Assembly (NCBI GenBank): GCA_964507055.1
Contig: CAZDOJ010000001.1
Coordinates: forward strand, 1,254,758-1,318,757
From: an uncultured Gammaproteobacteria bacterium
GTDB lineage: Bacteria > Patescibacteriota > Microgenomatia > Levybacterales > UBA12049
Direction of reading: 5' to 3'
DNA: 64,000 bases
Positions within the stretch are counted from its first letter, which is position 1. The number at the start of each line of letters is the position of its first letter. This document shows, one piece after another, positions 6,001-40,102 of this stretch. The notes beneath the pieces are model-generated. The model saw only the letters and a list, made by a program, of their open reading frames with translations. It was not told where the DNA came from and did no database searches. The position numbers and the translations under genes are program-made.

Positions 6001-7400
6001 CGCAGCCCCAGCAAAGTTCACTGTTGCTGCCGTTGCATTGATCAAATTGAATGTTGGGGAAGTAGTAGTAAGATCTCCACCATTCAATGCCAAATCTCCA
6101 GCTGAAGTAATATTTCCTGTAAGTGTTGAAGATCCATCTATTGTGAGATTGCCGTTTGCTGAGATATCGCCAGTATTTGTGAGTGTTGTCCCTGTTGAAC
6201 CATAGCCATTACCGATTGTCACCGAATCAATAGTCAAAGCAGCAGCTCCAGCATCGATAGCTGTAGCATTTGGAAGTGAGAGTGTCGCATTGTTGATTGA
6301 TGCAGTACCAGTTGCAGCACCGAGAACAAGGGTTGTTGCAGCACCGCCGATGTTCAATGTGGTTACGTTTGTATTAAATAAGTTTCCTGATCCAGCAGTT
6401 GTTGTGACATCTCCACCATTAACTGCGATATCACCAGCTGAAGTGATATTGCCACTGCCACCTGCAACAGAGAAGTTCGTTCCTGAAAGATCATTTGCTC
6501 CGAATGAGAGAGCAGTAACGATAGTTGGATCTGATACATCAATTGCAGTTGTAACACCACTTGTTCCAGATGAAGTAATTCTCAAACCGATAGGGAGGAT
6601 TCGATCAGCATCAGCATTATCGATAAGGACCATTTGGTTTGGATCTGAAGCTCCAACGCCATCAGCTCGGATGAATTCGGTACCAGCAGTAGATCCTGTA
6701 GCGGTTGTGATGATGAATCGTGAATCAGTAGCAGTGTCGGCTAATGTGAATGAGATATCTCGTCCATCAGATGTTGTAATAGTATTTCCACCATCATAAG
6801 CAGACTGCAATGTTGAAGCTGATGGAGGACATTTAACTACGTTATCTCCAGCATCGACACAAAGTGAGTATGCAGATGAGACTGGGATTGTGAGTCCTGG
6901 CAAGTTAAGGAATGAGTCAGCATCTGAAACGATTGTTACACTGTCTGTTCCAGCAGGTTGGAGAAGGACAAGACCATTTGCTGTGAGTGAACCGTTTGCT
7001 GTTGTATTGCCAGTAATAGTCAAAGCATTGTTTACTGTCGTTGTACCTGATGCAGCTCCGAATGAAAGGGAAGTAGCAGCCCCACCAACATTTAATGTTG
7101 TAACGCCTGAGTTAAGGAGGTTGAATGTGCTTGTACCTGATGTTAATTCTCCGCCATTGATTGCTAAGTCTCCGCCAATAACACCATTATTGTTTATAGT
7201 TGTTGTTCCTGAACCTGCACCGATAGCGATACTTGTAGCAGCTCCACCTAAGTTAAGCGATGTTGCATTGGTGTTGAAGAGATTCACTGATGAAGCAGTT
7301 GTTGTAATGTCTCCTCCATTGACTGCGATACTGCCACCAAAGGTTGCAAGTCCAGTGCTATTGAATGAGAATGTCGGATTAGTTGTCATGTTACCAAAGC
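1..7400 (-). repeat. Tandem in-frame coding repeats inside the giant gene, period about 1,065 nt (about 355 aa), at least 7 copies. Near-identical DNA stretches of 60 nt or more recur between copies.
   Basis: Antisense peptide signatures recur with a fixed period: ...SPPFNAKSP...NVEIPSTVKVPFA at about 750, 1834, 2910, 3960, 5010 and 6075, and ...SPPLTAISP...TEKFVP at about 40, 1085, 2190, 3245, 4300, 5350 and 6410. A long nt block is shared between about 1783-1850 and 4954-5021. Confidence 0.75.
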
Positions 7401-10400: not shown

Positions 10401-13400
10401 ATCCATTATTTTGAATGGCAAGGGAAGTTCCAGTTCCTGCATTGGTGTCATTGATAACAAAAGCTGGAGCTGTTCCTTGATTCTCAAGAGTAAATGAAGT
10501 GTCAGTTGTCACATCAGCCAATGTGAATGAGATGTTTCGTGCATCCGTCGTAACAATTGTGTTGCCAGTGTTGTATGCAGCCTGCAAACCGAATGGAGCA
10601 CCGTTACAAAGAACCAAGTTGTTCCCACCATCAATACAAAGAGCATTTCCAGCTGTTGTACCGAGGCCGTTAAATTGAACAGTTGAATCAGTATCTGTGT
10701 TGAAGACAACATCATTTGTGCCACTTGGAGCGAATGTTGCTGAGCCACTTGCGTTGAATGATTGACCTGATGGAACGAGTACACCACCATTGAAGGTCGC
10801 AAGCCCTGCTACATCAAGTGTAGAGTTAAGATTTGTCGTACCTGTCACACTAAGTGTTCCCCCGAGTGTAGTTGCTCCAGTTCCAACGGTGAAGGTATTC
10901 GCACCTGATACTGCTGTTGCACCGTTCAATGTAACTGAACCAGTTCCTGTAGAGAAGGTTGTAGCACCTGATTGTGTGAAGTTACCATTTGCTACGATTG
11001 CTCCACCGAAGGTTGCGGTTCCAGTAGTGACTGTAAATGCATTTGAAGCAGTAAGCAATCCAGCAGAAGTGATAGCTCCAGTGCCAGTTGTACTGATATT
11101 ACCTTGTGTGGAGAGAGTACCATTCTCATTGATGGTCAAAGTAGTTGCTCCATTATTTCGGATATCAATTGCTGTTCCTGTTGCTCCGTTCGTATTATCG
11201 AGAACGAATGCACTTGCTGTACCAGCATTGGTGAGTGAGAATGAAGCATCAGTAGCGGTGTCTGCGAGTGTGAATGCGATATCTCGGCCATCAGTTGTGG
11301 TGATTGTATTGCCAGCGTTGTATGCCTGTTGCAATGTGACGTTCAATGCATTTGATGAACAGACAGCGAGTTGGTTATCTCCATTTCGGCAAACAACTGT
11401 ACTTCCCACATTTCCTGAAAGAGTAGGAACTCGGACTAAATCATTAAGAATGATTTCGCCTGATCCACTTGCCTCAACAGTAAGGTCCTGATTATTTCCT
11501 GTAGTGATATCCAAGGCTGCATCATCAAAAATTAGTCCTGTAGTTCCAATAGTCTTACTATTCAATGTCTGAGCTTGATTCGCAAAGACAAATGTATCAT
11601 CTGCACTCAAGGCTGGAATGGTAGCTGTGCGAGGAGCAGAAGAAGCGATTGATGAAATCGTAGTTGTATTGGTCAAACCGAGAACAATTTGATTTGTTGT
11701 CGCTTCAGAGGTGAGAGTGCCAGCTGTCACCAAGTTACCGTTTTCGCCAATTGTCAGTCTATTCGTGCCATTTGATTGGATAGCCAAAGCTGTGCCGTTA
11801 CTACCATTGCCAGCATTGGTGTCATTGATGACAAATGCATTTGCTGAGCCTTGATTCTCAAGAGAGAATGAAGAATCTATGCCTGTATCACTGAGTACGA
11901 ATGAAACATTTCGGCCATCAGTCGTTGTTATAGTATTGCCAGCATCATACGCCTGTTGAAGCGTTACATTAAGAGCATTTGAGGAACAGACAGAGAGTTG
12001 GTTATCATCGTTTCTGCAAACAACAATATCTCCGACAGTATTGGAGAGGTTCGTAACTTGGACGAGATCACTAAGGATAAGCTGGCCTGTTCCATTTGCA
12101 TCGATGGTGAGGTCTTGATTAGTTCCCGAAGTAATGTCAGTTGAAACGCTATTGAAAGTAAAGGTGCCAGTAGTTGTGATCGCTCCTGAAGAGATTGTTG
12201 TAGCTCCTGAGATTGCTCCAGCGTTGGTGATACCGCCAATATTGTTATCGATACCTCCAGTGATGTTTGCTCCGCCTGCTGCGACAGTTACGCCACCAGC
12301 TGTGATACTCAATCCGCCAGTACTGATGGTCTGCCCTGCAGTAAAGACATTTGCTTGATTGAGGTAGGCGACATTGTTGAGTGTTCCAGCTGTATTGATA
12401 TTTGCACCGTTTAGTTGGATAGCACCTGTCGCATTAAGATTGCCAGCTTGGATCGTACCTGAAGCTGTAAGGTCAGTGATTCCTGTTATTTGACCTGCAT
12501 TGGTGATTCCTCCATTGCTGTTATCAAGGCCGCCACTGATAGTTGCTCCATTAGTTACATTTAATCCGTTTGAAGCAGAGAGGAGGCCAGCAGAAGTAAT
12601 GGTTCCTGTGCCGGTTGTTGCAATATTACCTGAAGTTGAGATATTGCTGATAGAGATAATGGCTCCATCTTCAGTAATTCGTAATGTTTCTGATCCATTT
12701 GATTGGATGATCAATGCATTATTTGCTGCAGCGTTTGTATCGTTGATTATGACACCTGCTCCTGTGCCTGTATTGGTTAAATTAAGTCCTGTAGCATTAC
12801 CATTATTGACTAGATTAAATGATGTTGGTGTGGTTAATCCACCAGTTAAATTGAAGAATATACCTCGACCATCAGATGTGTCTATAGTATTTCCTGCATC
12901 GTACGCTTGTTGTAATGTGACCTCAGCAGCATTGGCTGGACACTGTACTAATTGGTTGGTTACATCGTCTCGGCAGATTGTTGTAGCAGAGTTTACTGTT
13001 GTGTTAAGTACTGAAAGCTGAGTCATCTTACCGAGAATGATTTCACCAGTTCCATTAGGTGAGAGAGTGAGGTTTTGATTTGTTCCAGTTGTTATTGCTG
13101 ATGAAACGCCACTTAATATAACATTGCCTGAAGTTGTAACAGAACCAGATGATATCGTTCCTGCGGTGATAAGGTTTCCATTTTCATTAACAGTAAGTGT
13201 GGAAGTGCCACCTGATTGGATATCTAAAGCAAGTTGATTAGCAGCATTGGTATCGTTGATGACAAACGCACCATTACCAGTTCCTGCGTTGGTGAGTGTG
13301 AATTGTGCTGAAGATCCGTTTGCCAAATTGAATTCGATATCTCCATACGTATTATCTGCATCAATCGTATTGCCAGCTTGATAAGCTTGTTGCAAGTCAA

Positions 13401-16400
13401 CATTTGCAGCATTGGCAGGACACTGAATTAATTGATTTGTTATATTGTCTCGGCAAACGGTTGTTGCTCCATTAAGACTTGTGTTGAGCGTTGTTAATTG
13501 GAGTGGACCAGCCAATGTGAATTGTCCTGAGTTACTGAGACTTGCAACTTCGGTACCAGATGTATTTTGGAATGAAAGTTCGTACGAAGGCCCAGTTCCT
13601 GTAACTTGATTTTGGAGACTGAAGCCTACATTGGTTGATGAACTGCCATTCCAGTATGCTCCTTGGAATGTTACAAGGTTTGAATTCTGTGTTTGTGTTC
13701 CGACTGTTGCATTACCAACGCGATTCAATGTAAGTGTATCTGTTCCTGATTGATCTCCGATTTCAACTCCTGAGAGAGCACCGATAACTGTTCCGTTGTC
13801 GGTAAGGTTTGAATCAGCGATATTTGAAGCAAGTCCTGGATCGATGAATCGAGCAAGTCTGTATTGATTACCTTGGCCCCCAACAACGCCACCTGTACCG
13901 GCACAGTTACCTGAAGTAACACAGATAGCACCATCTGCGTCAGGAATCGTTAGCACTCGAGTCGTACCAGTTGCTATCTGACTTGCATCAAAGATAAACC
14001 GCTTTGTGACATCTGTGTCATCGACGAAGTAGGTTGTTAGATCAGTCAAAGACTTGTTGCTGAGTGTCTGTGCTTGGTTTTGGAAAACGAATGTATCATT
14101 GCCTGTAAGAGCCGGTAGTGTTGCAGTTCGTGGGGCAGATGGAGCAATTGAATTGATTGTAGTTGTATTTCCTGTGCCGAGAACCAATTGATTTGATGTA
14201 GCGAGAGAGGCGAGTGAGCCGTTTTCACTGATGGTTAATGTATTTACGCCACCTGATTGGATAGCCAATGCAATATTTGTTCCAGCATTGGTATCGTTGA
14301 TAACAAACGCACTGTCAGTGCCTTGGTTGGTGAGTCGGAATGAAGCATCATCTGTCAAAGTGTCTGCAAGTGTGAATGAAATATCCCGAGCATCAGTTGT
14401 GAGGATGGTATTGCCAGAATCATACGCTTGTTGCAATGTTACGGCTGCAGCATTAGCAGGGCACTGTACGAGTTGATTTGTTACATTATCTCGGCAAATT
14501 GTGGTTGCGGAGTTGAGCGTCGTATTGAGAACTGAAAGTTGTGTCGCACTGCCAAGCACAATATTTCCTGAGCCAGCTGAAAGGGTGAGTGCTTCATTTC
14601 CTGTTGTTGCAATATCAGTCGCTGCTCCTGTAAAGAGTAATCCAGAGGAACCGATCGTCTTATTTGTCAGTGTTTGTGCCTGGTTTTCAAAGACGATAGT
14701 ATCATTTGCACTCAGTGCTGGAATGCTTACGATTCTCTGAGCAGCTTGAGCGTTAGCATTAAATACTACGTTATTGCCAGTTGGTCCAAGTGAGAGCTGA
14801 TTGTTGCTGTTTGAGAGGCTCGCTGTTGGGGCATGGACTTCACCTGCACAATCAAGGTTTCCGCTTGCATTGAAAACTGTACAACCTGTTGCAGCTGAAC
14901 CACCAGCTAAAGCTATATCACCAGAGCTATTTATTGAAAGTTCAGTTGTCCCTTGTGTTTCATTAACTAAATTGAGAGTACTGCCATCTACTAATATTGC
15001 AAAATCCTGCTCGCCTCCAACACCGCCAGTGGTATCCACGAATCGTAGAGAAGGATCTGAATTTTCAATTGTGATATCTCCATCAGAGGTTGCCGCACCA
15101 GAGAGGTAAAGGTTTCGGAAACGCTTATTAGCAGAACCAAGATCGTATACAGCATCTGCGGAAGGACCAATATTGCCACCTACTTCAACCAAAAAATTCT
15201 CCAGAGGATCTGGAGTTGTCCCTATGCCAACTTTACTGTTGGGAATCAGTAGGTTCCCCGCATTATCGGCGGTTATGGTCGGATCGGGCGAACCATTTCC
15301 AGCAGAGTAGAGTGTTAGACTGCCATTTGTTCCTCCTGTTCCAGTGTTGTTTGTTCCAAGAGCGAGGTTCGCTGTTGCTGCATTGAAGAAGAGCGTTGCG
15401 TTGCCAACTGTTCCGTTACCTCCAAGAATGAAATCATTAGCAGTTGAAGTAGGGCGGATGAAGTCACCGTAGGTTGCATCGTTATCAACGATGAATGGAG
15501 TAACGCCAGCAGAAGTGATTGCATTGTCGAGATCTTCCAAAACTGCTTGTAAATTAGTTGAACTTGCATTTGCAAGACTGTCATATACACCAACTAAGTT
15601 TGCACCTGATGTGTTTGCATCAGTACCTTCTGCATCAAGGGCAATTGATGACCAAGCAGGAAGCCCGTTTACTACCTGAAGGATCTTTCCATCTGTATCA
15701 CCGATTGGAAGTGCGTCTAATTCGTTACTCCCTGAAGCGAAAAGTAAGTCCCCTGTATTATATGAAGTAAGTCCTGTACCTCCGTTAGCAACTGATACTG
15801 AGCCATTGATAGCTCCAGCATCAACTGAGCCTCCAGGACCGACAGTTATATTATTTGATACAGCAACATCTGTGATACAAGACGCACAAGTTCCACGAGC
15901 TACAACATCTCCTAACGTAGAAATATCACTAATTGTCAGTCCATCTATAGCTATACCATCACCAGGTTGGAGTTCGATTTCACCTGTTTCACCTTGGAAA
16001 GCTGTCACAGTTTCAGGGGATGGAGGAATTTCAACTGAGATTGTAGGATTCTGTTCGTCACCTGAAAGAACGACATTGTCTCCAGCCACAATACTGTAGA
16101 GGATATTTGGTGCTGTTAGATCACCGGTAAACGTACCTGTTCCACCGACTTCAAGATTTTTGTCGATAGAAGTATTTCCGTTGACTTCAAGGTCTTTTTT
16201 CACTGAAACATTTTCCTTGAAGATGACTGGCAAGGCGAAGGTTACATTTCCCGCAAGCCTCACTTTACTGGTTTCTGCAGCTAATACTTCTCCATCTTGA
16301 GCCGAAGTAGTCCTGTAGTCAGATGTCTCGAAGAGAAATTTGAACTTATCTTGTTGATTTATGACCACAACACCTAGAACCAAAAGAATCGTTGTAGTAA

Positions 16401-16848
16401 TTGCAAGTGTTTTTGTTGAAGGAATTCTGAATTTGAAGGTAAGGGAGTCTGTGATTTGAGCCTTGATATGATCCTTGATGAAATCATCTTCGTAGAAACC
16501 GTTTCCGATCCAATTCACTAGCCTTCGGTAAAAATCTGCTTTCGCAATGTTATCCGGAAGGGTAGAAGGCTCAGATGCGATCTTTGCCAATTCAGACGCC
16601 GTCTGCCCTGACGGAGTATCTGTGGCATTAATCACTTCACCTTGTGCAGCAACGCTTGTTGCTTTCTGGATCTCGAGAAAATTCTCAAGCTGTTCTTCGG
16701 TGTACCCAATCTGCCCATCATGGGTAATCGTAGGCTTGAGGATGTGCAATTGGTTCCATTTGAGCAGCGTGTCAGTAGAGACTGCTAGTCTTTTAGCAGC
16801 CTCTTGAAGTGTTAGTAATTTTGGAGTTTTTGGATGGGCAGAATCCAT
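1..16848 (-). CDS. Giant membrane-anchored repetitive surface protein, 5' partial. It has an N-terminal cytoplasmic excisionase/MerR-like HTH, one TM helix and an extracellular region of more than 5,400 aa made of tandem repeats. It runs off the window start, so the true length is unknown.
   Basis: ATG at 16848-16846 on the minus strand. I translated frame 0 by hand to nt 1 with no stop: 16848/3 = 5616 codons exactly, and the final codon GGC occupies nt 3-1. N-terminus MDSAHPKTPKLLTLQEAAKRLAVSTDTLLKWNQLHILKP is an HTH_17/Xis-like pattern. TM segment TLAITTTILLVLGVVVI. After that come Gly/Thr/Asn/Ala-rich repeats with the recurring motif LC[IV]DxxxNxx[TK]C...SLQxAYxGGNTI. Every minus-strand ORF in the track for 1-16.8 kb sits in a single other frame, as expected if frame 0 is open throughout. 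Confidence 0.8.
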   Translation of the reverse strand, partial: MDSAHPKTPKLLTLQEAAKRLAVSTDTLLKWNQLHILKPTITHDGQIGYTEEQLENFLEIQKATSVAAQGEVINATDTPSGQTASELAKIASEPSTLPDNIAKADFYRRLVNWIGNGFYEDDFIKDHIKAQITDSLTFKFRIPSTKTLAITTTILLVLGVVVINQQDKFKFLFETSDYRTTSAQDGEVLAAETSKVRLAGNVTFALPVIFKENVSVKKDLEVNGNTSIDKNLEVGGTGTFTGDLTAPNILYSIVAGDNVVLSGDEQNPTISVEIPPSPETVTAFQGETGEIELQPGDGIAIDGLTISDISTLGDVVARGTCASCITDVAVSNNITVGPGGSVDAGAINGSVSVANGGTGLTSYNTGDLLFASGSNELDALPIGDTDGKILQVVNGLPAWSSIALDAEGTDANTSGANLVGVYDSLANASSTNLQAVLEDLDNAITSAGVTPFIVDNDATYGDFIRPTSTANDFILGGNGTVGNATLFFNAATANLALGTNNTGTGGTNGSLTLYSAGNGSPDPTITADNAGNLLIPNSKVGIGTTPDPLENFLVEVGGNIGPSADAVYDLGSANKRFRNLYLSGAATSDGDITIENSDPSLRFVDTTGGVGGEQDFAILVDGSTLNLVNETQGTTELSINSSGDIALAGGSAATGCTVFNASGNLDCAGEVHAPTASLSNSNNQLSLGPTGNNVVFNANAQAAQRIVSIPALSANDTIVFENQAQTLTNKTIGSSGLLFTGAATDIATTGNEALTLSAGSGNIVLGSATQLSVLNTTLNSATTICRDNVTNQLVQCPANAAAVTLQQAYDSGNTILTTDARDISFTLADTLTDDASFRLTNQGTDSAFVINDTNAGTNIALAIQSGGVNTLTISENGSLASLATSNQLVLGTGNTTTINSIAPSAPRTATLPALTGNDTFVFQNQAQTLSNKSLTDLTTYFVDDTDVTKRFIFDASQIATGTTRVLTIPDADGAICVTSGNCAGTGGVVGGQGNQYRLARFIDPGLASNIADSNLTDNGTVIGALSGVEIGDQSGTDTLTLNRVGNATVGTQTQNSNLVTFQGAYWNGSSSTNVGFSLQNQVTGTGPSYELSFQNTSGTEVASLSNSGQFTLAGPLQLTTLNTSLNGATTVCRDNITNQLIQCPANAANVDLQQAYQAGNTIDADNTYGDIEFNLANGSSAQFTLTNAGTGNGAFVINDTNAANQLALDIQSGGTSTLTVNENGNLITAGTISSGSVTTSGNVILSGVSSAITTGTNQNLTLSPNGTGEIILGKMTQLSVLNTTVNSATTICRDDVTNQLVQCPANAAEVTLQQAYDAGNTIDTSDGRGIFFNLTGGLTTPTSFNLVNNGNATGLNLTNTGTGAGVIINDTNAAANNALIIQSNGSETLRITEDGAIISISNISTSGNIATTGTGTITSAGLLSASNGLNVTNGATISGGLDNSNGGITNAGQITGITDLTASGTIQAGNLNATGAIQLNGANINTAGTLNNVAYLNQANVFTAGQTISTGGLSITAGGVTVAAGGANITGGIDNNIGGITNAGAISGATTISSGAITTTGTFTFNSVSTDITSGTNQDLTIDANGTGQLILSDLVQVTNLSNTVGDIVVCRNDDNQLSVCSSNALNVTLQQAYDAGNTITTTDGRNVSFVLSDTGIDSSFSLENQGSANAFVINDTNAGNGSNGTALAIQSNGTNRLTIGENGNLVTAGTLTSEATTNQIVLGLTNTTTISSIASSAPRTATIPALSADDTFVFANQAQTLNSKTIGTTGLIFDDAALDITTGNNQDLTVEASGSGEIILNDLVRVPTLSGNVGSTVVCRNGDNQLAVCSSNALNVTLQQAYNAGNTITTTDGRDIAFTLADTATDASFSLTNAGTASAFVLDNTNGATGTAIDIRNNGATTLTINENGTLSTQGNISTTGTGAITSAGLLTASNAFTVTTGTATFGGAIVANGNFTQSGATTFSTGTGSVTLNGATAVSGANTFTVGTGATTLGGTLSVTGTTNLNSTLDVAGLATFNGGVLVPSGQSFNASGSATFAPSGTNDVVFNTDTDSTVQFNGLGTTAGNALCIDGGNNLVLCNGAPFGLQAAYNTGNTIVTTDARNISFTLADVTTDTSFTLENQGTAPAFVINDTNAGTGTSLAIQNNGSTTLTINEFGTLSTSGNIATTGTGTITSAGLLTASNGFTQTTGALNLTATSGALNLSGLSASTIDAGVNNIIITSGNFNTTATGINGTAIGTTTPSTAAFTTLTSSGNTTLATTGTFTAGNTAGALTLNGSTITANLTDNAANALDIQEGANNYFNINTTNGAENISFGNGTTNPTYSFLGTGAAAFTGDVNANANLNTAGNFTQSGAGTFSTGTGSVSLNGATAVTGANTFTVGTGATTLGGTLGVTGIATFNNNIAQTGTGTLSTGTGNVSLNGNTAVTGANTFSVGTGATTLGGSLGVTGAANFNSTLDVASLATFNGGATVSNGQAFNASGSATFTPSGTNDVVFNTDVDSTVQFNGLQTTAGNALCIDGSNNLALCNGAPFGLQAAYNTGNTITTTDGRDIAFTLYDETSDAGTATSFTLTNEGSADTLVINDTNTGTNNAISIQSGGLETLFIDEDGNLTTSGNITTTGTGAITSAGLLTASNGFTQTTGALNLTATSGALNLSGLSASTIDAGVNNLLITSATFNVTATGINGTAIGTTTPATAAFTTLSSSGNTTLASAGSFTAGNTGNALTLNGSTITANLSDNAADAFDIQEGVNNYFNINTTNGAENIAFGNAATNPAFNFLGTGSLNLGSGTITTSATTANIFDTTATTINLGGVATAISLGANTGTTTVNNLLAVTDTLRVTPTGANGIELQPYGAGAGNTSEFQLYELTANGTEYTGFKAPDSMNSSIVYTLPSDAGSTDYVLTYQSGGLLEWKNANLVAGDISSVGNVLTGAAFSGTDAGNSLFFQGTTVDGNTIELVGEDATQNEQIILPANSGTIALIQPRIAQVATGTQALLFINEAGVATPNLLQLQTAGADSFVVDNNGNIAVNGGSITTNQTTANVFNSGVSTLNIGGDATDVSIASSSGTTTVNNDLVVTGTFSSNGISNLGDGGDLVNINGTDISLTANGTGTITNNIVNNIADAFSIRQGTNEYISINTTTGAQDISFGNMTTNPTFSFNSTGLATFGGSIAVNGGDITTTASSVNLFNTNATSLNLGGAATSIAIGAGSGTTTINNNGVIGGDLAINGGELTSGTSTFNLLNSGVTTLNVGGAATSLSFGAASGTTTVNNALTITGNTTANGSLTANGLVLLQPAGTDSVTIVSDADSFLNLPGLTIPVSSAYSLCVDAGDNVVKCPPSASTLQSAYDGGNTITTSDGRDISFTLADTATDSRFIITTATGSTAGTEFIRADGVGASDPNQMVLIDNADADRILPIGLRITSSGTSGVTTAIDVSDPTIVTALSFGANDLSGTNFSVAGGSGNITSAGDIAVNGGDVTTTAGSGNLFNTNVTTLNIGGAATTLVLGAATGTASINNATLSLPNATAIDAGAAALTIDSVTIGNGYGSTGTTLTNTGDISANGNLTIDGSSTLTGNITSAGDLALNGGDLTTTSPTFNLINATAATVNFAGAATTLSIGANTGTTTINNNLTVSDNLLVNGQTTLTPSGTNDVIINTDLDSGLYVTGLPTATGNLVCIDNGTDQITKCASNAISLQSAYDGGNTIDTTNAKDIAFSLENTATDANFTITTADGSTGSTIFQRADGNGTNDPTQLVLIDNADTDRALPVGLTISSSGGGGITTGIDLSDPTIVTGISLGVSSIAGTNFSVDGATGSITSNGDLALNGNDITTGTTGTATIFNTNATTLNIGGAATTYTLGATSGTGNIRGTTINFPNATALTASSALATFDSLSIGGSYGSTGLSITNTGNLSANGNLIIDGTSTLTGDITSAGDLALNGGDITTTAGTASLFNTNATTLNIGGDATVISLGDTTGLTTVNNDLTVEGDLTANSSVLFNPSGTNAITFNTDSDSPLFVTGLPTASGTLVCIDAGTSQVTKCAADAISLQSAYVGGNTINTTNNRDIAFTLANTATDSQFIVTTADDSTAGSVFVRADGTGTNDPSQLVLIDNADTDRALPIGLRISSSGGGGLTTALDVSDASIVTAIALGANDITGTNFSVNGGNGNITSAGDIAVNGGDITTTSGTANIFNANATTLNIGNAATTVSLGSTTGTATIRNATVSLLGTTLNANAATASFDALNVGNGFGSTGLTVTNTGNVSANGNLVIDGTSTLTGDITSSGDLALNGGDITTTTSGIASLFNTNATTVNIGGDATVVSIGDDTGLTTINNSLTVDNDLTANGTSTFTPAGTGTVTINTDTDSGFYVTGLDAAPNGLLVCVDNSTGQINKCASDAISLQSAYTGGNTIATTDARDIAFTLANTATDANFTITTADGSTGFTSFTRANGAGTSDPTQLILVDNLDTDRAVAAGIKIQSAAGGITNALDLSDAEIVNALSLGANNVIATNFSITGASGDITTSGDIAVNGGDVTTTQTTGNLFNTNVTTLNLGGDATTINLGASTGTIAINNQTISLPNATAINAGGALATLDAANLGGGYGSTGVSISNTGNIQANGTLTVDGISTLTGNITSNGDLALNGGDLTTTSPTFNLATANATTVNFATAATALSIGAGNGTTTVNNALTITGNTTANANFTANGQSTFNPSGTNGVSITTDADSFLNVSGLTTAAGTILCVDGSNNVVTCADNSISLQAAYDAGNTITTTSGRNIAFTLADDATDSNFIVTTATGSTGGAQFIRADGAGSNDPTQLVLIDNADSDQILPTGLTISSTGGGGITTALDVSDASIVTAIALGANDITGTNFSVDGSNGNTTVGGNIAVNGGNITTTQSSANIFNSTATTLNIGGAATSLTLGGTTGTANIRNATINFANATSFNAPNAAATFSAIEVGGGYGDTGITLSNAGNISANGTLTVDGISTLTGNITSSGDLALNGGDITTTAGTASLFNTNATTVNIGGDATVISLGAATGTTTVNNDLDVLGTGTFGGALTANSTFDANGASTFSPTGTDGVTVNTDSDSFFTLTGLTTPGVAGTTLCLDASDNVTKCGGATFSLQAAYNGGNTIATTDARDIAFTLSNTTTDANFTITTATGSTGGSAFIRADGVGTNDPAQLVLIENQDTDRALPVGLRIAGVTGGDITTAIDLSDANIVNAIDFGDNDIIGTQLSITGATGQITTSGDLAINGGDITTTSGTANVFNTDATALNIGGAGTAITIGATTGTTTIRNATLSLPNATTINALQATANFDALNIGDGYGSTGATIANNGTIQTNGTLTVDGISTLTGNVTAASDLAVNGGDITTGSSTFNLINTTATTLNIGGAATSVNIGAGTGTTTVNNALNVTGLATFNGGATVPSGQTFTANGISTFSPDSTNDVTINTDSDSFLTITGLTTTTGNLLCIDGSDNVTKCSAGSVSLQGAYNGGNTINTTNARDIAFNLTDTSTDANFVITTATGSTGGSQFLRADGAGANDPAQLVLIQNQDADQALPVGLRIAGVTGGDVTTAIDLSDANIVTAIDLGANDIAGTNFSVAGATGNITSAGDAAING
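8300..11450 (-). repeat. A second, more divergent tandem repeat family in the giant gene, period about 1.37-1.45 kb, at least 2 copies.
   Basis: The antisense ORFs 8624..8926 and 9962..10414 are clearly homologous (...VEPFNVKALPVLPAVN.../...VEPFNVNAPAVLPAVN...; ...TPASIVDAESPERFKAPDVAVKLSAPVV...). 9353-9874 and 10790-11491 are likewise homologous. Confidence 0.6.
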
Positions 16849-18248
16849 GTGTTTTACAAGATAAGTTCTTTGACTTTGAGATTTAGGCTTATAAAAATCT
16901 AAAACTCTAGCCTAATCTAACTTTATTATTATTAATATAGGTAGTCAAGTAAGAATTTACACTTTTCTTACATGTCCATATCTTAGAGTATTTTACTCAG
17001 CCGTAAAATGAGTAGGGAATTGATATATTTTGAATCTTTATAGTGGGATTTTATATCCTAAAAAACAGCAATGTAAGAAAATTCGTTTTACAAATAATTT
17101 TCCAGCTCATTTGTCACAAAAAAGCCCAAAAGGGCGGAGTTTATTAGATTCTAATATACCCTGATTATTTAGGGAGATGTGAAACGAAAATGTGAAAAGA
17201 AAAGACAATAAAAATACGAAATCAGCATTTTTAGTAACTTTTCATATTTGTCTATAGTGAGGTGTCGGCAGCTACACTACAGACAAAAGAAGGAGATAGC
17301 AAAATGTTGGCATTACTGCTAATTATTTTTAAGCACTGTTTGGATTGATGACACAGTGTCTTTCTAAAATCGTACTTTACTTTGGGAAGTAGGGTGGATT
17401 CGTGATGAAAAAAATATATATTCTAGCCTCGAGAAAATGAAAATAAATCAACACTTCATACTATAGCAATTTTATGTAATAAACTAGTCTTGAAAATGAA
17501 AGTATACTCATGCTTTTAAATTCAAACGTCATAAAATGCGTTTTAAGCTATGTAAATAAGGATAGGACGACCATTTCATTAATTATTTAACTGCTATTTA
17601 AAGGAATTTTAGATAGAGAAGTAGTATACGCCCTTCGAGTTGATACGCTCAAGCCTTTGCCTATTAAAAGAGAATAACCTTAGTTAAGAATAGGCTAGAA
17701 GTTAGTTGTAACAAAAAAAAGTATATATCCCATAGGTTACTTATCCACATCCCATAGGCGAAAAATGTGGAGAAGTGTGGAAACTTGAGCATGAATAGCC
17801 TCATTTAATATCTACTTATTTCTTACTACAAAGAGAGGACTACATAATTTAGCCACGCCACGATTCGCTACAGGATTAAATAGATGCATATGTATATTCT
17901 TTGATGCATTAAGCTTTTTGGTTTTCACAGTGATTTAGGAAATCTGGATAACATTAACGTAAATCGTACTAAAAAAATCTTTCAATGAGAAATGGAAAAA
18001 CTAATTTGTATACATTTTTGTTGTATGTGTTTCTATCATACGAAAGATTAAAAGTATATGTATGGAACCTTCAATAAAATGTCAGTAGAAGGGGAGATCA
18101 AGGCTAAAATAGAGTCTCAGTATTTTCTATGAACATAGAGATAAGCATAAAACAAAGAAAACGAACAGATTTTATTGTTCTATAAAATTGATCAAATAGC
18201 CTATTTTAGAAATATATTATTATAATAATTAATCCGCACTAAATATGC
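16849..18248. other. 1.4-kb AT-rich non-coding region. It could be the upstream regulatory region of the giant gene and/or a candidate oriC. It contains a cluster of DnaA-box-like 9-mers.
   Basis: No ORF of 60 aa or more on either strand across about 1.4 kb in an otherwise tightly packed window. It is visibly more AT-rich than the flanking coding DNA. TTATCCACA (9/9) at 17741-17749. TGTGGAGAA (8/9, reverse orientation) at 17766-17774. TGTGGAAAC (7/9) at 17776-17784. TCTGGATAA (8/9) at 17943-17951. Confidence 0.5.
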
Positions 18249-18560
18249 TTATTGTTTTTGAGGTTTTGATTGCGATTTTGAAGATGGATCAATCTCTTCA
18301 AGAAGGAGTGTCTCGATACCCAAGAAAATATGTACTTCATCTTTTTTTACCTTCATTACCGCCTGTTCAATCTTTAACTCTTTAATCTTCTGCTTATTGT
18401 GATAAAGATCGAGCTGCGTATGAATAATAGATATGAAGTTGGCATGCATAGGGTAGACATCGAACTTTCCAACCTCATTAAAAGAGGTTATACGCTCGGC
18501 TTCGCCTTCATAAATGGTATTTTCAGTATCTTCTACAATGACTTTAAGTAGAGTGGCCAT
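18249..18560 (-). CDS. atpC: F0F1 ATP synthase subunit epsilon
   Basis: 103 aa, lies directly downstream of beta. MATLLKVIVEDTENTIYEGEAERITSFNEVGKFDVYPMHANFISII is the characteristic epsilon beta-sandwich N-terminus. Confidence 0.75.
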   Translation of the reverse strand: MATLLKVIVEDTENTIYEGEAERITSFNEVGKFDVYPMHANFISIIHTQLDLYHNKQKIKELKIEQAVMKVKKDEVHIFLGIETLLLEEIDPSSKSQSKPQKQ

Positions 18561-18607
18561 AGTGTTAGCGTATCATGATCTCTCAGATAATCACAAGTTT
18601 GTACTTC

Positions 18608-20164
<1,557 letters not shown>

Positions 20165-21058
20165 TTATTCATCTTCAAGTGAAAGTACTCCAGAAATGGT
20201 TTCTAATTGTTTCTTGTTTTGCATAAGATGTTTGATACGAGTTTGTTCGACGTGCAGCTTTTTTGTTTCTTCTTCAATATGAACAAGTGCTTCTTCCATC
20301 GCACTTACACGGGAAGCATGTCTTGCAAGCTGGTTCTCAAGAAGCGTTTGGCTGAAAAGATTTGCCATGATCTGCGTTTCAAAAAAGTGCAATATCTTCT
20401 CTAAATCAGGTTCAAAAATAAATCTATCTTCACGTGGAATTTCAACTGGTGTTTCTGTCTCAAAAATATCTTCTCCACTGATACTTGTTTGAATAGGGGT
20501 TTGCTTAACGACATTTCCAAATTTTCCATAATAGACATCTACTTTGTCATATTGTAAAAACTTTTGCATAAGCTGTTTGATGTGATCAATATCGACAGAT
20601 GTGTCAGGGATTTCAAAGTACTCAAACTTTTTTCCAATACCAGATGCTTCATACATTTCTTTACCAGCACGCCCAATGATCACAATATCTGCATCATTTT
20701 CGTTTGATTCTTTTACATCCGCGATAAAAAGCTTATATGTTTTTTGTGTCACAGCTCCGTACAATCTTCCATTGGATGAAAGATATACAAGAAGTTTTTT
20801 TCCATTTTTTTGAAGAGTAGGGAGTATATTTTTGTCACCTTTTTTCATCTTATCCAAAAGCTCTTTGACTTCTCGTCCATACGATGATTTTAAGTCGACG
20901 TATACATCAGAAAGAGATGCAAGAAATGTACGAGTTTTTAATACAGAATCTTTAATCTTCTGCATACGAACAACGGCGATTTCCTCATACGATTCAGCTA
21001 AGTCTTTAAGACTATTCAATGCTTCTAATTCTTCTAATACAATTTTTCTTTGTGGCAT
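20165..21058 (-). CDS. atpG: F0F1 ATP synthase subunit gamma
   Basis: 297 aa between alpha and beta. It has a coiled-coil N and C terminus, and ...LARHASRVSAMEEA... is conserved near the C-terminus. Confidence 0.8.
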   Translation of the reverse strand: MPQRKIVLEELEALNSLKDLAESYEEIAVVRMQKIKDSVLKTRTFLASLSDVYVDLKSSYGREVKELLDKMKKGDKNILPTLQKNGKKLLVYLSSNGRLYGAVTQKTYKLFIADVKESNENDADIVIIGRAGKEMYEASGIGKKFEYFEIPDTSVDIDHIKQLMQKFLQYDKVDVYYGKFGNVVKQTPIQTSISGEDIFETETPVEIPREDRFIFEPDLEKILHFFETQIMANLFSQTLLENQLARHASRVSAMEEALVHIEEETKKLHVEQTRIKHLMQNKKQLETISGVLSLEDE

Positions 21059-21074
21059 ACATTTATTATATGGT

Positions 21075-22553
21075 TTATTGTCCTATCTTTAATAGCGTAT
21101 CTTTATGTTTCATGACGTTCTCATTGAATACTTTAATATCATTAGTATTTTTGATTTCGAAAATTAACTTCTGTCCACCGTAATGGGGGAAAGTATATGT
21201 TTTAATTAATCCATTCTTAACTTTTTCCAAAACCTCTTTATCTGGAATGAGATCCTGCAAGATCATTGAAAGAAGTATTAATTGCACTGCAAAGGGTACA
21301 GTAATGTGATATGACTGATTGAATAACTTGTAGATCATCTCACCCAAACGTAAATCTCTTTTAACATCATCAGTTAATTCTTGACCAAAATGAGAAAGAT
21401 TTACCATCTTGTCATAGTTGGTCAGAAACGCTGTGAGACTTTTATTTACTTCACGAGAGAGTTTATCCATCGCTTGACGCCCAACACGAGTAACGGAAAG
21501 AGGGATGTTTACAGCAGGACGCATACCTTGGTAGTAGATATTACTATCCAAATAAATGTGTCCATCCGTGATACCCATGACATTGGTTGATACGTATCCC
21601 GTCAAATCTCCTTCGACAATTTCGATAACAGGAAGGCATGAAATAGAAACTTCTTTTACCATCGGATCTGGGTGTTTGAAATTGCCAGCACGTTCGAGAA
21701 GTTTTGAATGCACATAAAAGATATCACCTGGATACGAATCACGACCCGGGAATCTTCGTGCAAGAAGTGATAGTTCTCGATAGAACTTCGCGTGTGTTGA
21801 AAGGTCATCGAGAATCAATAATGTATGCTGACCCTTGTCCCGGAAATATTCTGCAATTGCCATTGCAGCATAAGGGGTTTGGTAAATAAGACTAGGGGAA
21901 TCGTATGAAGATGTCGCAACGATAATTACTTTATCAGCAATTTTTTGTTGCTCAAAAAATGCTTGCAGTCTTTTGATTTCACTTTTTTTCTTTGCGATTG
22001 CGGCGTAAATTGCGATAACTCCTTCATCAATTTGTTTGCGAATAGTTGTCATAAGGATTGCAGTTTTACCTGTTTTACGATCACCAATAATAAGTTCTCG
22101 TTGTCCTCGTCCTAATGGAATGAGAAGATCAATCAATGTAATTCCTGTAGCAAGGGGAGTTGCGATCTTTTGACGTCCTGAAATACCAATAGGCTTTGCA
22201 TCAAGGTCTCGAAACTCTTTAGGAGGAGTATATGGGACAGATGGGTCAAGCTGTTCGCCCAAGGGATTAATTGTATGTCCGAGTAATTCTGGGCCTACAC
22301 CGATACTCAATAATGTATCTGTTCTGACAACTTTTGTTCCAACGCGTATCGGTTCATGCGAGAATATACGTACTTCAATCTTTCCTCGATTGATAGTAAA
22401 GACTTCGCCTTTTTGTCCTGTTTCAAACATCACAACTTCATGGGTTTTTACTTTTGGTAAACCTTCTATAAAAACAATAGGGTGGCTTACTTGATAGACT
22501 ACACCGTATTCACCGGTTTTCTGCATGATGTCATTGAATTGATTGTCGTTCAT
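21075..22553 (-). CDS. atpA: F0F1 ATP synthase subunit alpha
   Basis: GDRKTGKTAI P-loop (consensus GDRQTGKT). ...ILDDLS.HA.AYRE.SLLARRFPGR... motifs. Confidence 0.9.
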   Translation of the reverse strand: MNDNQFNDIMQKTGEYGVVYQVSHPIVFIEGLPKVKTHEVVMFETGQKGEVFTINRGKIEVRIFSHEPIRVGTKVVRTDTLLSIGVGPELLGHTINPLGEQLDPSVPYTPPKEFRDLDAKPIGISGRQKIATPLATGITLIDLLIPLGRGQRELIIGDRKTGKTAILMTTIRKQIDEGVIAIYAAIAKKKSEIKRLQAFFEQQKIADKVIIVATSSYDSPSLIYQTPYAAMAIAEYFRDKGQHTLLILDDLSTHAKFYRELSLLARRFPGRDSYPGDIFYVHSKLLERAGNFKHPDPMVKEVSISCLPVIEIVEGDLTGYVSTNVMGITDGHIYLDSNIYYQGMRPAVNIPLSVTRVGRQAMDKLSREVNKSLTAFLTNYDKMVNLSHFGQELTDDVKRDLRLGEMIYKLFNQSYHITVPFAVQLILLSMILQDLIPDKEVLEKVKNGLIKTYTFPHYGGQKLIFEIKNTNDIKVFNENVMKHKDTLLKIGQ

Positions 22554-22555
22554 AA

Positions 22556-23080
22556 TTAGTTATGTGCAGCTGTTTGTTGCTTTGAATCTTCCTTGTGAGG
22601 TGCTTCATCTGTTGAAGGTTTCATTAATTGCTTCATTGATTCATCGAAACGTGGCTTGATAGATCCATCAACAAATTTTCCTTTATATTGTAATTTCGCT
22701 CCAGCAATAATATTTTTATCCACGACGATTTCAAAAATCATTTGTTTTTTTATATTCATAACAAACCATTCAGAAAGTGCTTGTAATGTTTTTTCCTTTG
22801 GTTCAACTGCAATAGTCATACTCAGAACGGGGAGAGCGTTCACTGCTGCTTGCAATTTTGTGAGGAATGCTTTCAGTGCTGTCGCTGATTCTGGATTTAT
22901 TTTGTTGTCTCGGAGAAGCGTCATGAACTTATCCTTTTTCTGAATACCAAATTCATCGAGGAGGCTACTTTCTAAATGAAAATTCGTTTCATATATTTTT
23001 GAAGATATTGTTCCAATTCGTGCGTTGAAGTCCATTGCCTGAGCTTTTGTTTTAAAAAAAGGTGTTAAATCAAGTTCCAT
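22556..23080 (-). CDS. atpH: F0F1 ATP synthase subunit delta (OSCP)
   Basis: 174 aa, sits between b and alpha. Helical N-domain and C-terminal ...AGAKLQYKGKFVDGSIK... Confidence 0.65.
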   Translation of the reverse strand: MELDLTPFFKTKAQAMDFNARIGTISSKIYETNFHLESSLLDEFGIQKKDKFMTLLRDNKINPESATALKAFLTKLQAAVNALPVLSMTIAVEPKEKTLQALSEWFVMNIKKQMIFEIVVDKNIIAGAKLQYKGKFVDGSIKPRFDESMKQLMKPSTDEAPHKEDSKQQTAAHN

Positions 23081-23715
23081 TACTCAAATAGTCCTTCCTG
23101 TTTGGCTTTATCGAGCGATTCGATGATTAGCTTTTGGTGATCTTCAGCGGAGATTGATTTATGAAGAACATCCTGTGTCACCTTTAATGTCATACTTTTG
23201 ATGTTTTGTTCTGTTTGCTTCATGCGTGCTTGTTTGTATTCGAGTAATTCTCGTTCGAGAGCTGGGAGCATGTCGTTTTGGAAATGCAGTGCTTGCTTAT
23301 GCAAACCTTCTTGCATTTCTTTTGAAATTGCTTTGAAGTCCTGCAATGATTGATCAGTGAGTTTCTTCAATTCATGCTGATAACTATCTCTGAAATTCTG
23401 TGAGGCATTGGATGTCTCTTTCTCAATATCTGTTTGCATCTGATGGAGTGCTGTATCAACTGATTCTTTTGATGCTTCGCTGACGAATTCGGTTTGGGCA
23501 ATAATCTGATTTGCTTCAGTTGTCGCATCATCAAGGATTTTACGCTCTTTACTTAATGCGTCATCGACGACTTTGTGATATTCCGTATCAGTTTTTTTTT
23601 CTCGCTTTTCTAAATCCTTTTCTTTGGAGTAAAGACGCATCATGTAATAACCGACGAAGAGGAAGAGGACCAGATCGGCCGTAATGGACATCGCTTGGTA
23701 AAATGTGGGCAGCAT
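23080..23715 (-). CDS. atpF: F0F1 ATP synthase subunit b
   Basis: N-terminal TM helix followed by a long charged coiled coil. Its position upstream of delta fits. Confidence 0.65.
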   Translation of the reverse strand: MLPTFYQAMSITADLVLFLFVGYYMMRLYSKEKDLEKREKKTDTEYHKVVDDALSKERKILDDATTEANQIIAQTEFVSEASKESVDTALHQMQTDIEKETSNASQNFRDSYQHELKKLTDQSLQDFKAISKEMQEGLHKQALHFQNDMLPALERELLEYKQARMKQTEQNIKSMTLKVTQDVLHKSISAEDHQKLIIESLDKAKQEGLFE

Positions 23716-23759
23716 AATATATCTATTTTAGCAGAAAACAAGATACTTTGAAGCTTGGG

Positions 23760-24563
23760 TTAGAGGCGGAGGATAAGAAAAGAAACAGTCATTCCAGCGG
23801 CAACGATGATTACCACAATGCCTACATTAAACATAATTCCAAGATGGATAATCCGGCTTGCTGATGGATTACGGCCCAAAGCCTCAACACCTTTTGCAGC
23901 GGTTCGTCCAAAGGTCATAAATGCTAGAACAAATGAGGCAATAACCACAAGTGCCGCAACTATGTATTTAAAAAGAGGAGTAGGACCATCTTTGGTTGGG
24001 AGCAATGCAAACTTGAAAATATCGGTTAGTGAACCTGGAAAAGTAGGTTTGGCATTAAAATAATGGAGGTTAAATTCAACTGCAATCAATCCTGGTTGCG
24101 TTGGGTTGGAACTTCCATAATCTTCAAGTGCAGTCCCGAGTACATATCCATCTTTTACTGCCTTTACTCCGACTCCTGGTATTTCTGATGTAGCGATCAA
24201 GTCGCCCTTTTTAATCGGGCCTTCTTTACTTGCGACCAATACATAGACAGTTCCCACGGAAATGACTGGGACACCGTTTTCTGTAGCACTATTATTTAAG
24301 ATAATTCCGGCATCACGTGAGACAACTCCCATGACCTGTGCATCATAGGGGATATTGGAAAGAACATTTCCGGTGTCAGAGGAAGAGATAATGCTTCCAT
24401 CTTTGACATCTTTAACTTTTACATCAACCATTCGAGCGACTCCAAGCGTTCCAGCACCTTGGACTGCAGATCCTTGAGCGTTAACAGTGGGTGCAATCGT
24501 AAGTAGCAAAGTACCGATTATAGGAAGTATGAGGAATTTGGATTTTAGCGAGGCAGAAAACAT
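23760..24563 (-). CDS. Hypothetical secreted or membrane protein. It has a signal peptide, a soluble domain of about 170 aa and a C-terminal 2-TM hairpin. It sits where atpB/atpE would be expected.
   Basis: MFSASLKSKFLILPIIGTLLLTIAPTVNAQG is a signal peptide. The C-terminus ...FGRTAAKGVEALGRNPSASRIIHLGIMFNVGIVVIIVAAGMTVSFLIL has a loop that resembles the c-subunit 'ARQP' loop, but it has no conserved carboxylate in helix 2. Confidence 0.5.
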   Translation of the reverse strand: MFSASLKSKFLILPIIGTLLLTIAPTVNAQGSAVQGAGTLGVARMVDVKVKDVKDGSIISSSDTGNVLSNIPYDAQVMGVVSRDAGIILNNSATENGVPVISVGTVYVLVASKEGPIKKGDLIATSEIPGVGVKAVKDGYVLGTALEDYGSSNPTQPGLIAVEFNLHYFNAKPTFPGSLTDIFKFALLPTKDGPTPLFKYIVAALVVIASFVLAFMTFGRTAAKGVEALGRNPSASRIIHLGIMFNVGIVVIIVAAGMTVSFLILRL

Positions 24564-24599
24564 ATACTAGTATCGTACCATATTGAGAAGGTTTTTAAC

Positions 24600-25373
24600 T
24601 TATTTTGGTTGGAAGTTTGTGAATTCTTGAGCACAGTTGTTCCCAACGCAGGAGACACAACTATAGGTGAAGTTTCCGACAATTGCTTGATGGTGAATAG
24701 GATCATTGATCCACCAATTAAATGCGGCTTCTTCCGAACCCATTGAGATAATATTCTCTGTATTCCAGTATGGAAGTGCTCGAGCAGCGAGTCCAGAATG
24801 AAGTGCTCCCGATGCAACTTCTCCAGCAATTTCTGGTGCACGGGAAGCGGCCAAACTACAAACCTGGTCATTTTTCTGCAATGCAGGTAATCCTCTCGCA
24901 GCACGATAATCATTTGACATTGAGAATAATTTATCTGCATCCAATCCACCAGGATTTGCTGTTGATTGCGGTGCCGCTGGCGGAGGTGTTAATGGTGCAG
25001 ATGTTGGGGTAGGCGTATCTTTTTTGGTGGGGAGAGGGGTTGGGGTTGGTGAAGCTTTTTTTGTAGTTGTCGGGGCTGTTGACGGAGTACCTGATAGAAG
25101 TGTCTTCGGCTCGACAAGATGAGATATATAAATAGTAGGCGTCGGGTCAGCAAATGGGGTAGGAGTGATTGTAATTTGGGTATGTGCTGCGAGAACCTGA
25201 GGCGTATCTTTTGCCTTTGAAGCTACAGGGCTAATCGGTTCTGTAGGTCCTTGTGCGTGTGCCACTGTGTGGAAGACCACGGTAAAGAAGCAAAACGCAT
25301 ATACTGAGAGCAGCGTATATCCTGCTATTTTTCTCCGCATTTCTTCATGGTAGCATGGAATCGTAAAATACAA
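24600..25373 (-). CDS. Secreted CAP/SCP/PR-1 domain protein with a Pro/Thr-rich linker
   Basis: N-terminal TM/signal ending ...FHTVAHAQ. PT-rich linker. C-terminal ...NDYRAARGLPAL...HHQAIVGNFTYSCVSCVGN... is a CAP-domain signature. Confidence 0.6.
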   Translation of the reverse strand: MYFTIPCYHEEMRRKIAGYTLLSVYAFCFFTVVFHTVAHAQGPTEPISPVASKAKDTPQVLAAHTQITITPTPFADPTPTIYISHLVEPKTLLSGTPSTAPTTTKKASPTPTPLPTKKDTPTPTSAPLTPPPAAPQSTANPGGLDADKLFSMSNDYRAARGLPALQKNDQVCSLAASRAPEIAGEVASGALHSGLAARALPYWNTENIISMGSEEAAFNWWINDPIHHQAIVGNFTYSCVSCVGNNCAQEFTNFQPK

Positions 25374-31939: not shown

Positions 31940-32162
31940 GTGTCTATAATAACATGATTTTGTTCAGTTCCTAATGTAAGTTATCTATGGGACTTTGTCT
32001 ATAGTGATTCTTATGCATGAGCTTTTTTGTCTTTTCGCCCAGAATCACGGCTGTGTAAAAATATGTATCAAAAGACGAGTTTTGTTATAAGACTATCGAA
32101 AAAGCTTGACAAATTTTTACTAAAGGAAGGATGGAAGGGTTTGTTATAATCAATTTATACCC

Positions 32163-38252: not shown

Positions 38253-38327
38253 ATAGCAGCAGAACTTCTTTATTCTTTTCTTGTACAAATTTTTCGAAGG
38301 AAATTGTAGCTTTCGTGGTACTTTCTG

Positions 38328-38400
38328 TGGGCCAGGAAGGACTCGAACCTTCGACAAGGAGTGTATAAGACGCCTGTTCTAGCCGCTGAACTACTGGCCC
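38328..38400 (-). tRNA. tRNA-Ile with anticodon UAU (reads AUA)
   Basis: 73-nt cloverleaf. Acceptor GGGCCAG/CTGGCCC. D arm GTTC-AGCGGCTA-GAAC. Anticodon loop CTTATAC with U33 and A37. T arm GAAGG-TTCGAGT-CCTTC. One C:T mismatch in the anticodon stem. CCA is not encoded. Confidence 0.65.
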
Positions 38401-39853: not shown

Positions 39854-39860
39854 TACTTTG

Positions 39861-40069: not shown

Positions 40070-40102
40070 CTAATTAGAAGTACAGTTAGAGACAACTTCA
40101 TT

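Follow-up and report, generated by a model that had tools for sequence, protein, structure and literature searches.

A conserved two-module region between atpC and a giant gene: a candidate promoter/operator region with an adjoining DnaA-box locus that is apparently not an origin

The 64-kilobase (64-kb) stretch of contig CAZDOJ010000001.1 analysed here, which we call the window, contains a non-coding gap of 1400 base pairs (bp; 16849-18248) between atpC, the final gene of the ATP synthase (atp) operon, and a giant gene of more than 5,616 codons. The gap is given here on the minus strand, on which both of its neighbours lie. Its best explanation is that it is conserved cis-acting DNA and not an origin, an RNA gene or coding sequence. 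We read it as the promoter/operator region of the giant gene together with an adjoining locus of DnaA boxes outside the origin, a reading to which we give a probability of about 0.6 and in which the binding of DnaA is predicted from the motifs. Because conserved blocks are held at fixed distances by unconstrained spacers, and because signatures of RNA or of coding are missing, the gap would be a place where proteins assemble on the DNA.

Conservation and geometry of the gap

Relatives of the locus were gathered by means of the flanking proteins (L008/L010, both from OZ246394.1, L011, L013, L015, L017, L018, L019 and L020; counted as nine). Copies of the same strain from other samples were 100% identical and hence not informative. 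All nine relatives have the same order, in which atpC is followed by a non-coding gap of 1.2-1.7 kb and then by a giant gene whose N-terminus is the same. Among these relatives the gap is for the most part unalignable and neutral sites are saturated, yet a set of blocks is conserved to the level of coding DNA. The blocks fall into two modules, each with conserved internal spacing, and between them lies a linker (17474-17726) of which neither the sequence nor the length is kept, ranging from about 250 to 425 nucleotides (nt) among the relatives.

The upstream module, of about 290 bp (17727-18015), is made of short conserved blocks and unconserved spacers of kept length. It contains two DnaA-box-like 9-mers in inverted orientation with a 16-bp spacer: the right box TTATCCACA (17741-17749, plus strand), which matches the DnaA consensus at 9/9 positions, and the left box TTCTCCACA (17766-17774, minus strand), which matches at 8/9. 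The pair, TT(C/T)TCCACA-N16-TGTGGATAA, is found about 400-520 nt past atpC in all nine relatives although its surroundings are unalignable, and the start-to-start spacing of 25 nt is invariant in these long-gap genomes (9/9). The right box is present in a single copy per locus and is the exact consensus in eight of the nine, with ATATCCACA in L011; the left box reads TT(C/T)TCCACA in 8/9, with TTTTCCCCA in L017. A further DnaA-box-like sequence, TTATCCAGA (17943-17951, minus strand; 8/9), is kept in six of eight relatives, whereas the weak box GTTTCCACA (17776-17784, minus strand; 7/9) occurs only in the window, L008 and L015 and is not broadly conserved. A scan of nine genomes anchored on the right box gave no conserved DnaA-like positions beyond the right box, the left box and TTATCCAGA, and no additional weak boxes.

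A second motif, CTAYRGGA, recurs in the same module. Two direct copies of CTAYRGGAY (17749-17758 and 17727-17736, minus strand; repeat family D11) stand on either side of the right box, and an inverted copy, TCCTGTAG (17868-17875, minus strand), is conserved in seven genomes. The first element of the module is a conserved palindrome, (A/T)TGTATACAA (18006-18015). Measured to the right box in seven genomes, the palindrome lies at 263-266 nt, TTATCCAGA at 200-205, TCCTGTAG at 125-128 and the left box at 24, so that the spacings are conserved within ±3 nt although the intervening sequence is not. Such fixed distances across unconserved spacers suggest a defined protein-DNA complex.

In this sequence alone, the significance of the box cluster is marginal: the window contains 29 boxes that have one mismatch or none, where 20 ± 4.5 are expected, and 4.75% of first-order Markov random sequences of 64 kb contain three or more of them within 211 bp. 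It is the conservation among relatives, more than the clustering, that argues for the box pair being real. We also considered the pair as a hairpin of RNA or DNA and rejected this, as the left arm invariably has TT(C/T)T where the right arm has TTAT, which leaves one position that never pairs. Three changes in the arms disrupt pairing and none is compensated. From this constant asymmetry and these uncompensated changes, the arms appear to be two separate sites.

The downstream module, of about 620 bp (16849-17473, minus strand), consists of conserved blocks with fixed spacing ahead of the giant-gene ATG and is conserved as well as coding DNA. Pairs of relatives align over it at 59-79% identity with no more than 1-8 columns of gaps. 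Farthest from the gene is a promoter-like element with an extended -10, AAATTGCTATAGTA (17459-17473, minus strand), which faces the giant gene, is conserved in six relatives and is nearly identical to a tRNA-Met promoter of the window, AAATTGCTATAAT (39968-39980); in six genomes it stands 615-622 nt from the ATG. The nearly invariant 22-mer ACTATAGACAAATATGAAAAGT (17237-17258, minus strand), identical at nearly every position in 7/7 relatives, is unique in the window and always lies 375-397 nt ahead of the giant ATG. It is followed by a conserved T-rich tract, TTTCGTrTTTTTrTTGTCTTTTCTTTTCACA (17190-17221, minus strand), which in the window holds a tandem pair of 13-mers (repeat family D6), and by the conserved CACTATAAAG (17036-17045, minus strand), which on the plus strand gives the -10-like hexamer TATAGT. 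Other intervals in the module are 92 nt in 7/7 genomes, 95-96 nt and 52-53 nt.

Nearer to the gene, the block CTTGACTACCTATATTAATA (16920-16949, minus strand), invariant in eight relatives and unique in the window, contains the proximal promoter-like sequence TTGACT-N17-TAAAGT (16948-16920), a 9/12 match to the consensus that shares its form with the promoter TTGACA-N17-TAAGAT of the ribosomal RNA (rRNA)/tRNA-Ala genes. Between this block and the start codon is the invariant ATTTTTATAAGCCTAA (16883-16898, minus strand), probably a sequence motif and not a hairpin, since its apparent partner arm varies without compensation. Finally, GAACTTATCTT (16858-16868, minus strand) offers a -10-like TATCTT 9 nt ahead of the ATG, the usual position in the leaderless genes of this genome. 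The module thus contains, facing the giant gene, conserved -35 and -10 elements with an N17 spacer and an extended -10 AAATTGCTATAGT, as would be expected of promoters of the sigma-70 type.

The genome appears to be largely leaderless. A hexamer with at least 5/6 matches to TATAAT ends 4-13 nt before the start in 20 of 44 genes (mode 6-7 nt), and a Shine-Dalgarno-like core is found at only two of the 44 starts. A conserved upstream region of 1.4 kb would therefore be exceptional here. The window contains the sequence CTATAGAC four times where 0.96 would be expected, with one copy (31997-32004, minus strand) upstream of a transglycosylase gene whose own start is preceded by TATAGACACATG (31940-31960); -10 elements of the CTATAG type may be a promoter variant that recurs in this genome.

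These observations can be brought together as follows. The downstream module would act as the promoter/operator of the giant gene, with TTGACT-N17-TAAAGT, with TATCTT 9 nt from the ATG and with the distal AAATTGCTATAGT about 620 nt upstream, and its invariant blocks would most simply be sites for DNA-binding proteins. The upstream module would be a non-origin DnaA-box locus, in which a consensus box and an 8/9 box are inverted, a third box of 8/9 lies 200 bp off, and CTAYRGGA occurs three times. DnaA and a second factor might assemble on it and modulate transcription toward the giant gene, either as read-through from the atp operon or as initiation at the distal promoter. Alternatively, the assembly might be a site that titrates or regulates DnaA, in the manner of the B. 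subtilis clusters or of E. coli datA and DARS. The preliminary description of this DNA had offered a long promoter of the giant gene, controlled by DnaA or a nucleoid protein, as one possibility; the control region gains support from the 620 bp of conserved DNA, its fixed spacing and its tRNA- and rRNA-like promoters, while control by DnaA is something we infer from the boxes.

Several points weigh on the other side. Consensus promoter matches are no commoner than in shuffled sequence, and the promoter calls rest on such matches. About 900 nt separate the box pair from the giant ATG, and about 270-425 nt, with the variable linker between, separate it from the closest promoter-like element. This makes direct occlusion of a promoter unlikely and leaves a link between the two modules conjectural. 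The three boxes are fewer than those of datA or of the B. subtilis clusters, and another protein could bind DnaA-like 9-mers. In addition, the region seems to be dispensable for basic expression, since one genome, L021 (CAZSWA010000001.1, 8810-9079), keeps the same arrangement of atpC and giant gene with a gap of only 270 bp (24% GC). Both modules are missing from L021, no box pair is present anywhere in its 12.7 kb, and its gap keeps only one -35 element resembling TTGACTAC. This genome is about as distant as L011 and L020 and looks like a case of natural deletion or non-acquisition of the control region; the beta-subunit tree was too weak to polarise loss versus non-acquisition.

The product of the giant gene was also considered. 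The ortholog in the related complete genome OZ246394.1 (L008, 13261 onward) has 16,528 amino acids (aa). At its N-terminus the protein has a MerR-like helix-turn-helix (aa 13-63; Pfam E = 8e-5) and then, at about aa 147-165, a hydrophobic or transmembrane helix, and it therefore looks like a membrane-anchored protein with a DNA-binding head in the cytoplasm. A remote homolog of the N-terminus (37% identity) is found in L012 (Ga0182011_10013744, 2317-2427), where just 111 nt of intergenic DNA, free of boxes, precede the gene; on this basis the long control region would be confined to the closer clade.

Other readings of the gap

Perhaps some other dimeric factor, such as the helix-turn-helix of the giant protein itself, uses the box-like inverted repeat as its operator, and the resemblance of the repeat to DnaA boxes is a coincidence. 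We consider this unlikely, but it is one of the two alternatives that survive best. An inverted repeat with ATGTGGA arms (inverted pair I24) is a common form of operator, the giant protein does begin with a MerR-like domain, and the second motif CTAYRGGA indicates that other factors probably bind. Three features of the upstream module are not well accommodated, however. The right arm is the exact DnaA 9-mer consensus in eight of nine genomes, the constant asymmetry of the arms would be needless for a symmetric dimer, and the third DnaA-like 9-mer, at a distance of 200 bp, is conserved as an isolated site with no inverted repeat.

About equally unlikely is that transcription of the gap, in whole or in part, yields a functional RNA, for example a leader of the giant gene starting at about 17450 or a structured element past atpC in which TCCTGTAG pairs with CTAYRGGA. 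A leader would be consistent with the good extended -10 promoter 620 nt upstream, in a genome with almost no leaders, and with the strictly conserved length from promoter to ATG. The consensus fold of the 400-nt leader, however, is only -1.06 kcal/mol (RNAalifold), essentially no structure, and covarying helices were at the level of noise, so that a structured leader of 400-620 nt was rejected. As for the element past atpC, TCCTGTAG is complementary to the CTAYRGGA copy at 17727-17736, the seven core TCCTGTAG/CTAYRGG pairs are formed in 49/49 cells, the four variable columns all stay paired through G-U on the sense strand only, and minimum-free-energy folds of four relatives hold both helices (z -3.1 to -4.1). 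Against this, compensatory changes are absent: pairing is always possible but the changes are one-sided, no pair being altered on both sides anywhere, and the spacer that the proposed domain would enclose shows no excess of folding over shuffled sequence (mean z +0.44). We therefore rejected a structured domain closed by these arms as well. We estimate at about 0.002 the probability that a conserved RNA arm would match the DnaA consensus at 9/9 by chance.

Smaller RNA elements fared no better. A hairpin TAGGCT…AGCCTA by the start codon has a 5' arm that varies without compensation, and a small RNA ending at the terminator-like GCCCTTTTGGGCTTTTTT (about 17118-17135) was discarded, as that hairpin is not conserved and a terminator scan found none. 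The Rfam search over 16849-18248 that the preliminary description had proposed revealed no known family filling the region: nothing was found in the gap with the whole window searched at the gathering threshold, the gap searched by E-value (chance-level matches only) and eight relatives searched, and the gap contains no tRNA or tmRNA. The structured-RNA tests drew on 6-8 sequences and their power is limited accordingly. With no Rfam family, covariation or excess of folding, the unrecognised non-coding RNA suggested earlier finds no support.

A chromosomal origin of replication (oriC) had been the other main suggestion of the preliminary description. In this case DnaA would bind the boxes of the upstream module and unwind nearby AT-rich DNA. 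The gap has several of the expected attributes: conserved DnaA boxes with one at perfect consensus, AT-rich DNA (30% GC), a T-rich tract containing a tandem pair of 13-mers, and conserved blocks with fixed-length spacers, as are likewise present in enterobacterial oriC. In at least one group of the candidate phyla radiation the origin is not evident from gene content (PMC4736985), although complete genomes of the radiation ordinarily show a clean skew (PMC4736985).

The GC skew argues strongly in the other direction. The analysis covered the 64-kb window, in which the DNA to the left of the gap is a single gene of unusual composition, and in it no change of sign was found at the gap. Both sides of the gap have a positive plus-strand skew: the giant gene gives +0.087, the atp block +0.034 and the plus-strand genes on the right +0.103. 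Were there an origin in the gap, a value of about -0.10 would be predicted for the giant gene instead of the observed +0.087, with which all eight 2-kb chunks of the gene agree. In this genome skew tracks the strand of replication more than that of coding, as the minus-strand genes on the right still give +0.044 on the plus strand. The coding-strand skew of the giant gene, -0.087, fits that of lagging-strand genes (-0.041 ± 0.075) and is about 3 standard deviations off that of leading-strand genes (+0.105 ± 0.064); four-fold degenerate sites, which are independent of amino-acid composition, point the same way. Seven relatives have equal skew signs on both sides of the gap.

Other characteristics of an origin are also lacking. 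oriC usually has five or more DnaA boxes, including low-affinity sites, whereas only three box positions are conserved here and no dense array is formed. Neither a DnaA-trio nor a conserved unwinding element stands beside the boxes: what follows each box is either the CTAYRGGA motif or unconserved sequence, and the sole conserved T-rich tract (17190-17221) is about 520 nt away across the variable-length linker. The atp operon would be head-on to a rightward fork, and L021 keeps the gene order without the region, which is not expected of an indispensable element. The preliminary description had itself pointed out, correctly, that the atp operon is co-oriented with the giant gene, both being on the minus strand, and that dnaA and dnaN are not adjacent; Pfam scans of the genes of the 64-kb window found neither. 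Linkage to dnaA/dnaN is not a universal feature of origins. A recF-like gene (49639-50700) stands alone with no dnaA, dnaN or gyrB beside it. Taking together skew, box number, unwinding element, gene context and L021, the proposal of an origin is not supported, and we regard it as very improbable. Comparison with the consensus sequences of dif and parS showed resemblance only at the level of half-sites, and there is no skew switch; both were set aside. In OZ246394.1 the locus is at about 1.34 of 1.61 Mb in the record (about 1,343,800-1,345,200), a position that is not informative on the origin question.

Least probable of all is a decayed gene or a set of unannotated small-protein genes: open reading frames (ORFs) do exist, such as one starting MKS… from the conserved ATG at 17243 within the 22-mer and a plus-strand ORF of 44 aa (17030-17164) common to the window and L008, but in-frame stops occur in the window and L015, the same conserved nucleotides are read in different frames among relatives, and mismatches have no 3-nt periodicity where adjacent coding DNA is strongly periodic, so that this reading is refuted at the level tested. 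A source in mobile elements, plasmids or phages was likewise dropped, as blastn against phage and plasmid collections gave no similarity.

Setting of the locus in the window

The limits of the gap are set by the giant-gene ATG (16848-16846, minus strand) and the atpC stop at 18249. These boundaries confirm those given in the preliminary description, and its other basic observations hold as well: all four DnaA-box-like 9-mers were found where it placed them, the gap has no ORF of 60 aa or more (the longest lying wholly within it has 46 aa) and it is AT-rich. Its GC content is 0.30, compared with 0.41 in coding sequence and 0.37 in the remaining intergenic DNA of the window, so that its AT-richness exceeds that of other intergenic DNA only moderately. 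The rest of the window had been described as more than 90% coding; we measured a coverage of about 90% by coding and RNA genes.

The giant gene (1-16848, minus strand) leaves the window at its left end, and the minus strand carries every gene in 1-26735, namely the giant gene, those of the atp operon and two others. In the atp operon (18249-25373), Pfam identifies the epsilon, beta, gamma, alpha and delta subunits, epsilon being encoded by atpC (18249-18560, minus strand). Two ORFs at the expected positions of the membrane-sector subunits (23080-23715 and 23760-24563) have no Pfam match, and a gene for a CAP-domain protein lies directly upstream of the operon. The window belongs to a genome of the candidate phyla radiation (Patescibacteria), and the nearest named relatives of the beta subunit are labelled Levyibacteriota, Saccharimonadales or Patescibacteria. 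The record OZ246394.1 is titled 'uncultured Gammaproteobacteria bacterium', but its gene content and its similarity to the window are of the Patescibacteria type and the label is probably wrong.

Farther to the right, a tRNA-Ile gene with the rare UAU anticodon adjoins a gene for a tyrosine recombinase of the integrase family (37392-38400), and two divergent tRNA-Met genes are nearby (39860-40070). An ATP-dependent DNA ligase of the archaeal/eukaryotic type is encoded at 52884-54707. The window closes with tRNA-Ala(UGC) followed by the 23S rRNA gene (63050-64000), with a thioredoxin-reductase-like gene upstream; no 16S rRNA gene is present in the 64 kb, and the rRNA genes are therefore unlinked.

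Comparison with known DnaA-box systems and implications

The gap has a 9/9 box and two 8/9 boxes within 211 bp, in conserved intergenic DNA that the skew places outside the origin. This resembles B. subtilis, where clusters of DnaA boxes outside oriC regulate neighbouring genes or the initiation of replication (PMC3245932). The likeness lies in consensus-like intergenic boxes away from the origin and beside genes, whose expression the B. subtilis clusters can modulate. The present locus differs in having three conserved boxes and not many, in its rigid geometry and in its second repeated motif.

The E. coli sites DARS and datA also consist of a small set of boxes outside oriC. As in DARS, a consensus box is accompanied by an oppositely oriented imperfect box and a third box, and, as in DARS2 and datA, sites for accessory proteins may lie at defined distances. 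The core geometry is not the same, as boxes I and II of DARS point in opposite directions and are 5 bp apart (PMC6868365), whereas the inverted boxes here are separated by 16 bp in 9/9 genomes and the third box is 200 bp away. Unlike datA, which has five high-affinity boxes (PMC6868365, PMC3245932), the locus has three, and no recognisable site for IHF or Fis was seen. It shares with bacterial origins the DnaA boxes, the AT-rich non-coding DNA and the blocks with fixed-length spacers, and departs from them in having no skew switch, few boxes, no DnaA-trio or unwinding element by the boxes and no link to dnaA/dnaN. Promoters regulated by DnaA (dnaA autoregulation and B. subtilis sda, ywlC and yydA; PMC3245932) likewise have boxes upstream of a co-oriented transcription unit, but here the boxes are hundreds of nucleotides off across a variable linker, which makes simple occlusion or recruitment unlikely.

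The GC skew, the orientation of the rRNA and a plus-strand bias of 75% on the right point to the plus strand as the leading one, in which case the ATP synthase operon and the giant gene, of 17-50 kb, would be head-on to replication. One might then speculate, and we think the odds are long, that the upstream module is a DnaA-dependent checkpoint for the head-on giant gene. Together, DnaA and a factor binding CTAYRGGA would build a complex whose geometry is fixed and which gates transcription entering the giant gene by the state of replication initiation, so that RNA polymerases would be cleared ahead of the arrival of the fork. DnaA boxes would then, if this is true, have a new use, the avoidance of conflict between replication and transcription, in an uncultivated lineage of the candidate phyla radiation.

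Returning to the preferred reading of a promoter/operator region with an adjoining non-origin DnaA-box locus, its interest comes partly from the organisms themselves. To our knowledge, replication control and gene regulation in the candidate phyla radiation are almost unstudied, as the organisms are uncultivated, and the giant gene is among the largest bacterial genes we know of. The presence of a conserved DnaA-box cluster in AT-rich non-coding DNA that need not be oriC calls for care when origins are predicted automatically in these genomes. Ahead of the giant gene there would be a large and rigid control region, in a genome with almost no untranslated leaders. The locus supplies defined sequences for DnaA binding assays, with L021 as a natural deletion variant for comparison, and represents a concrete, conserved candidate for a DnaA-box site outside the origin in bacteria of the candidate phyla radiation.

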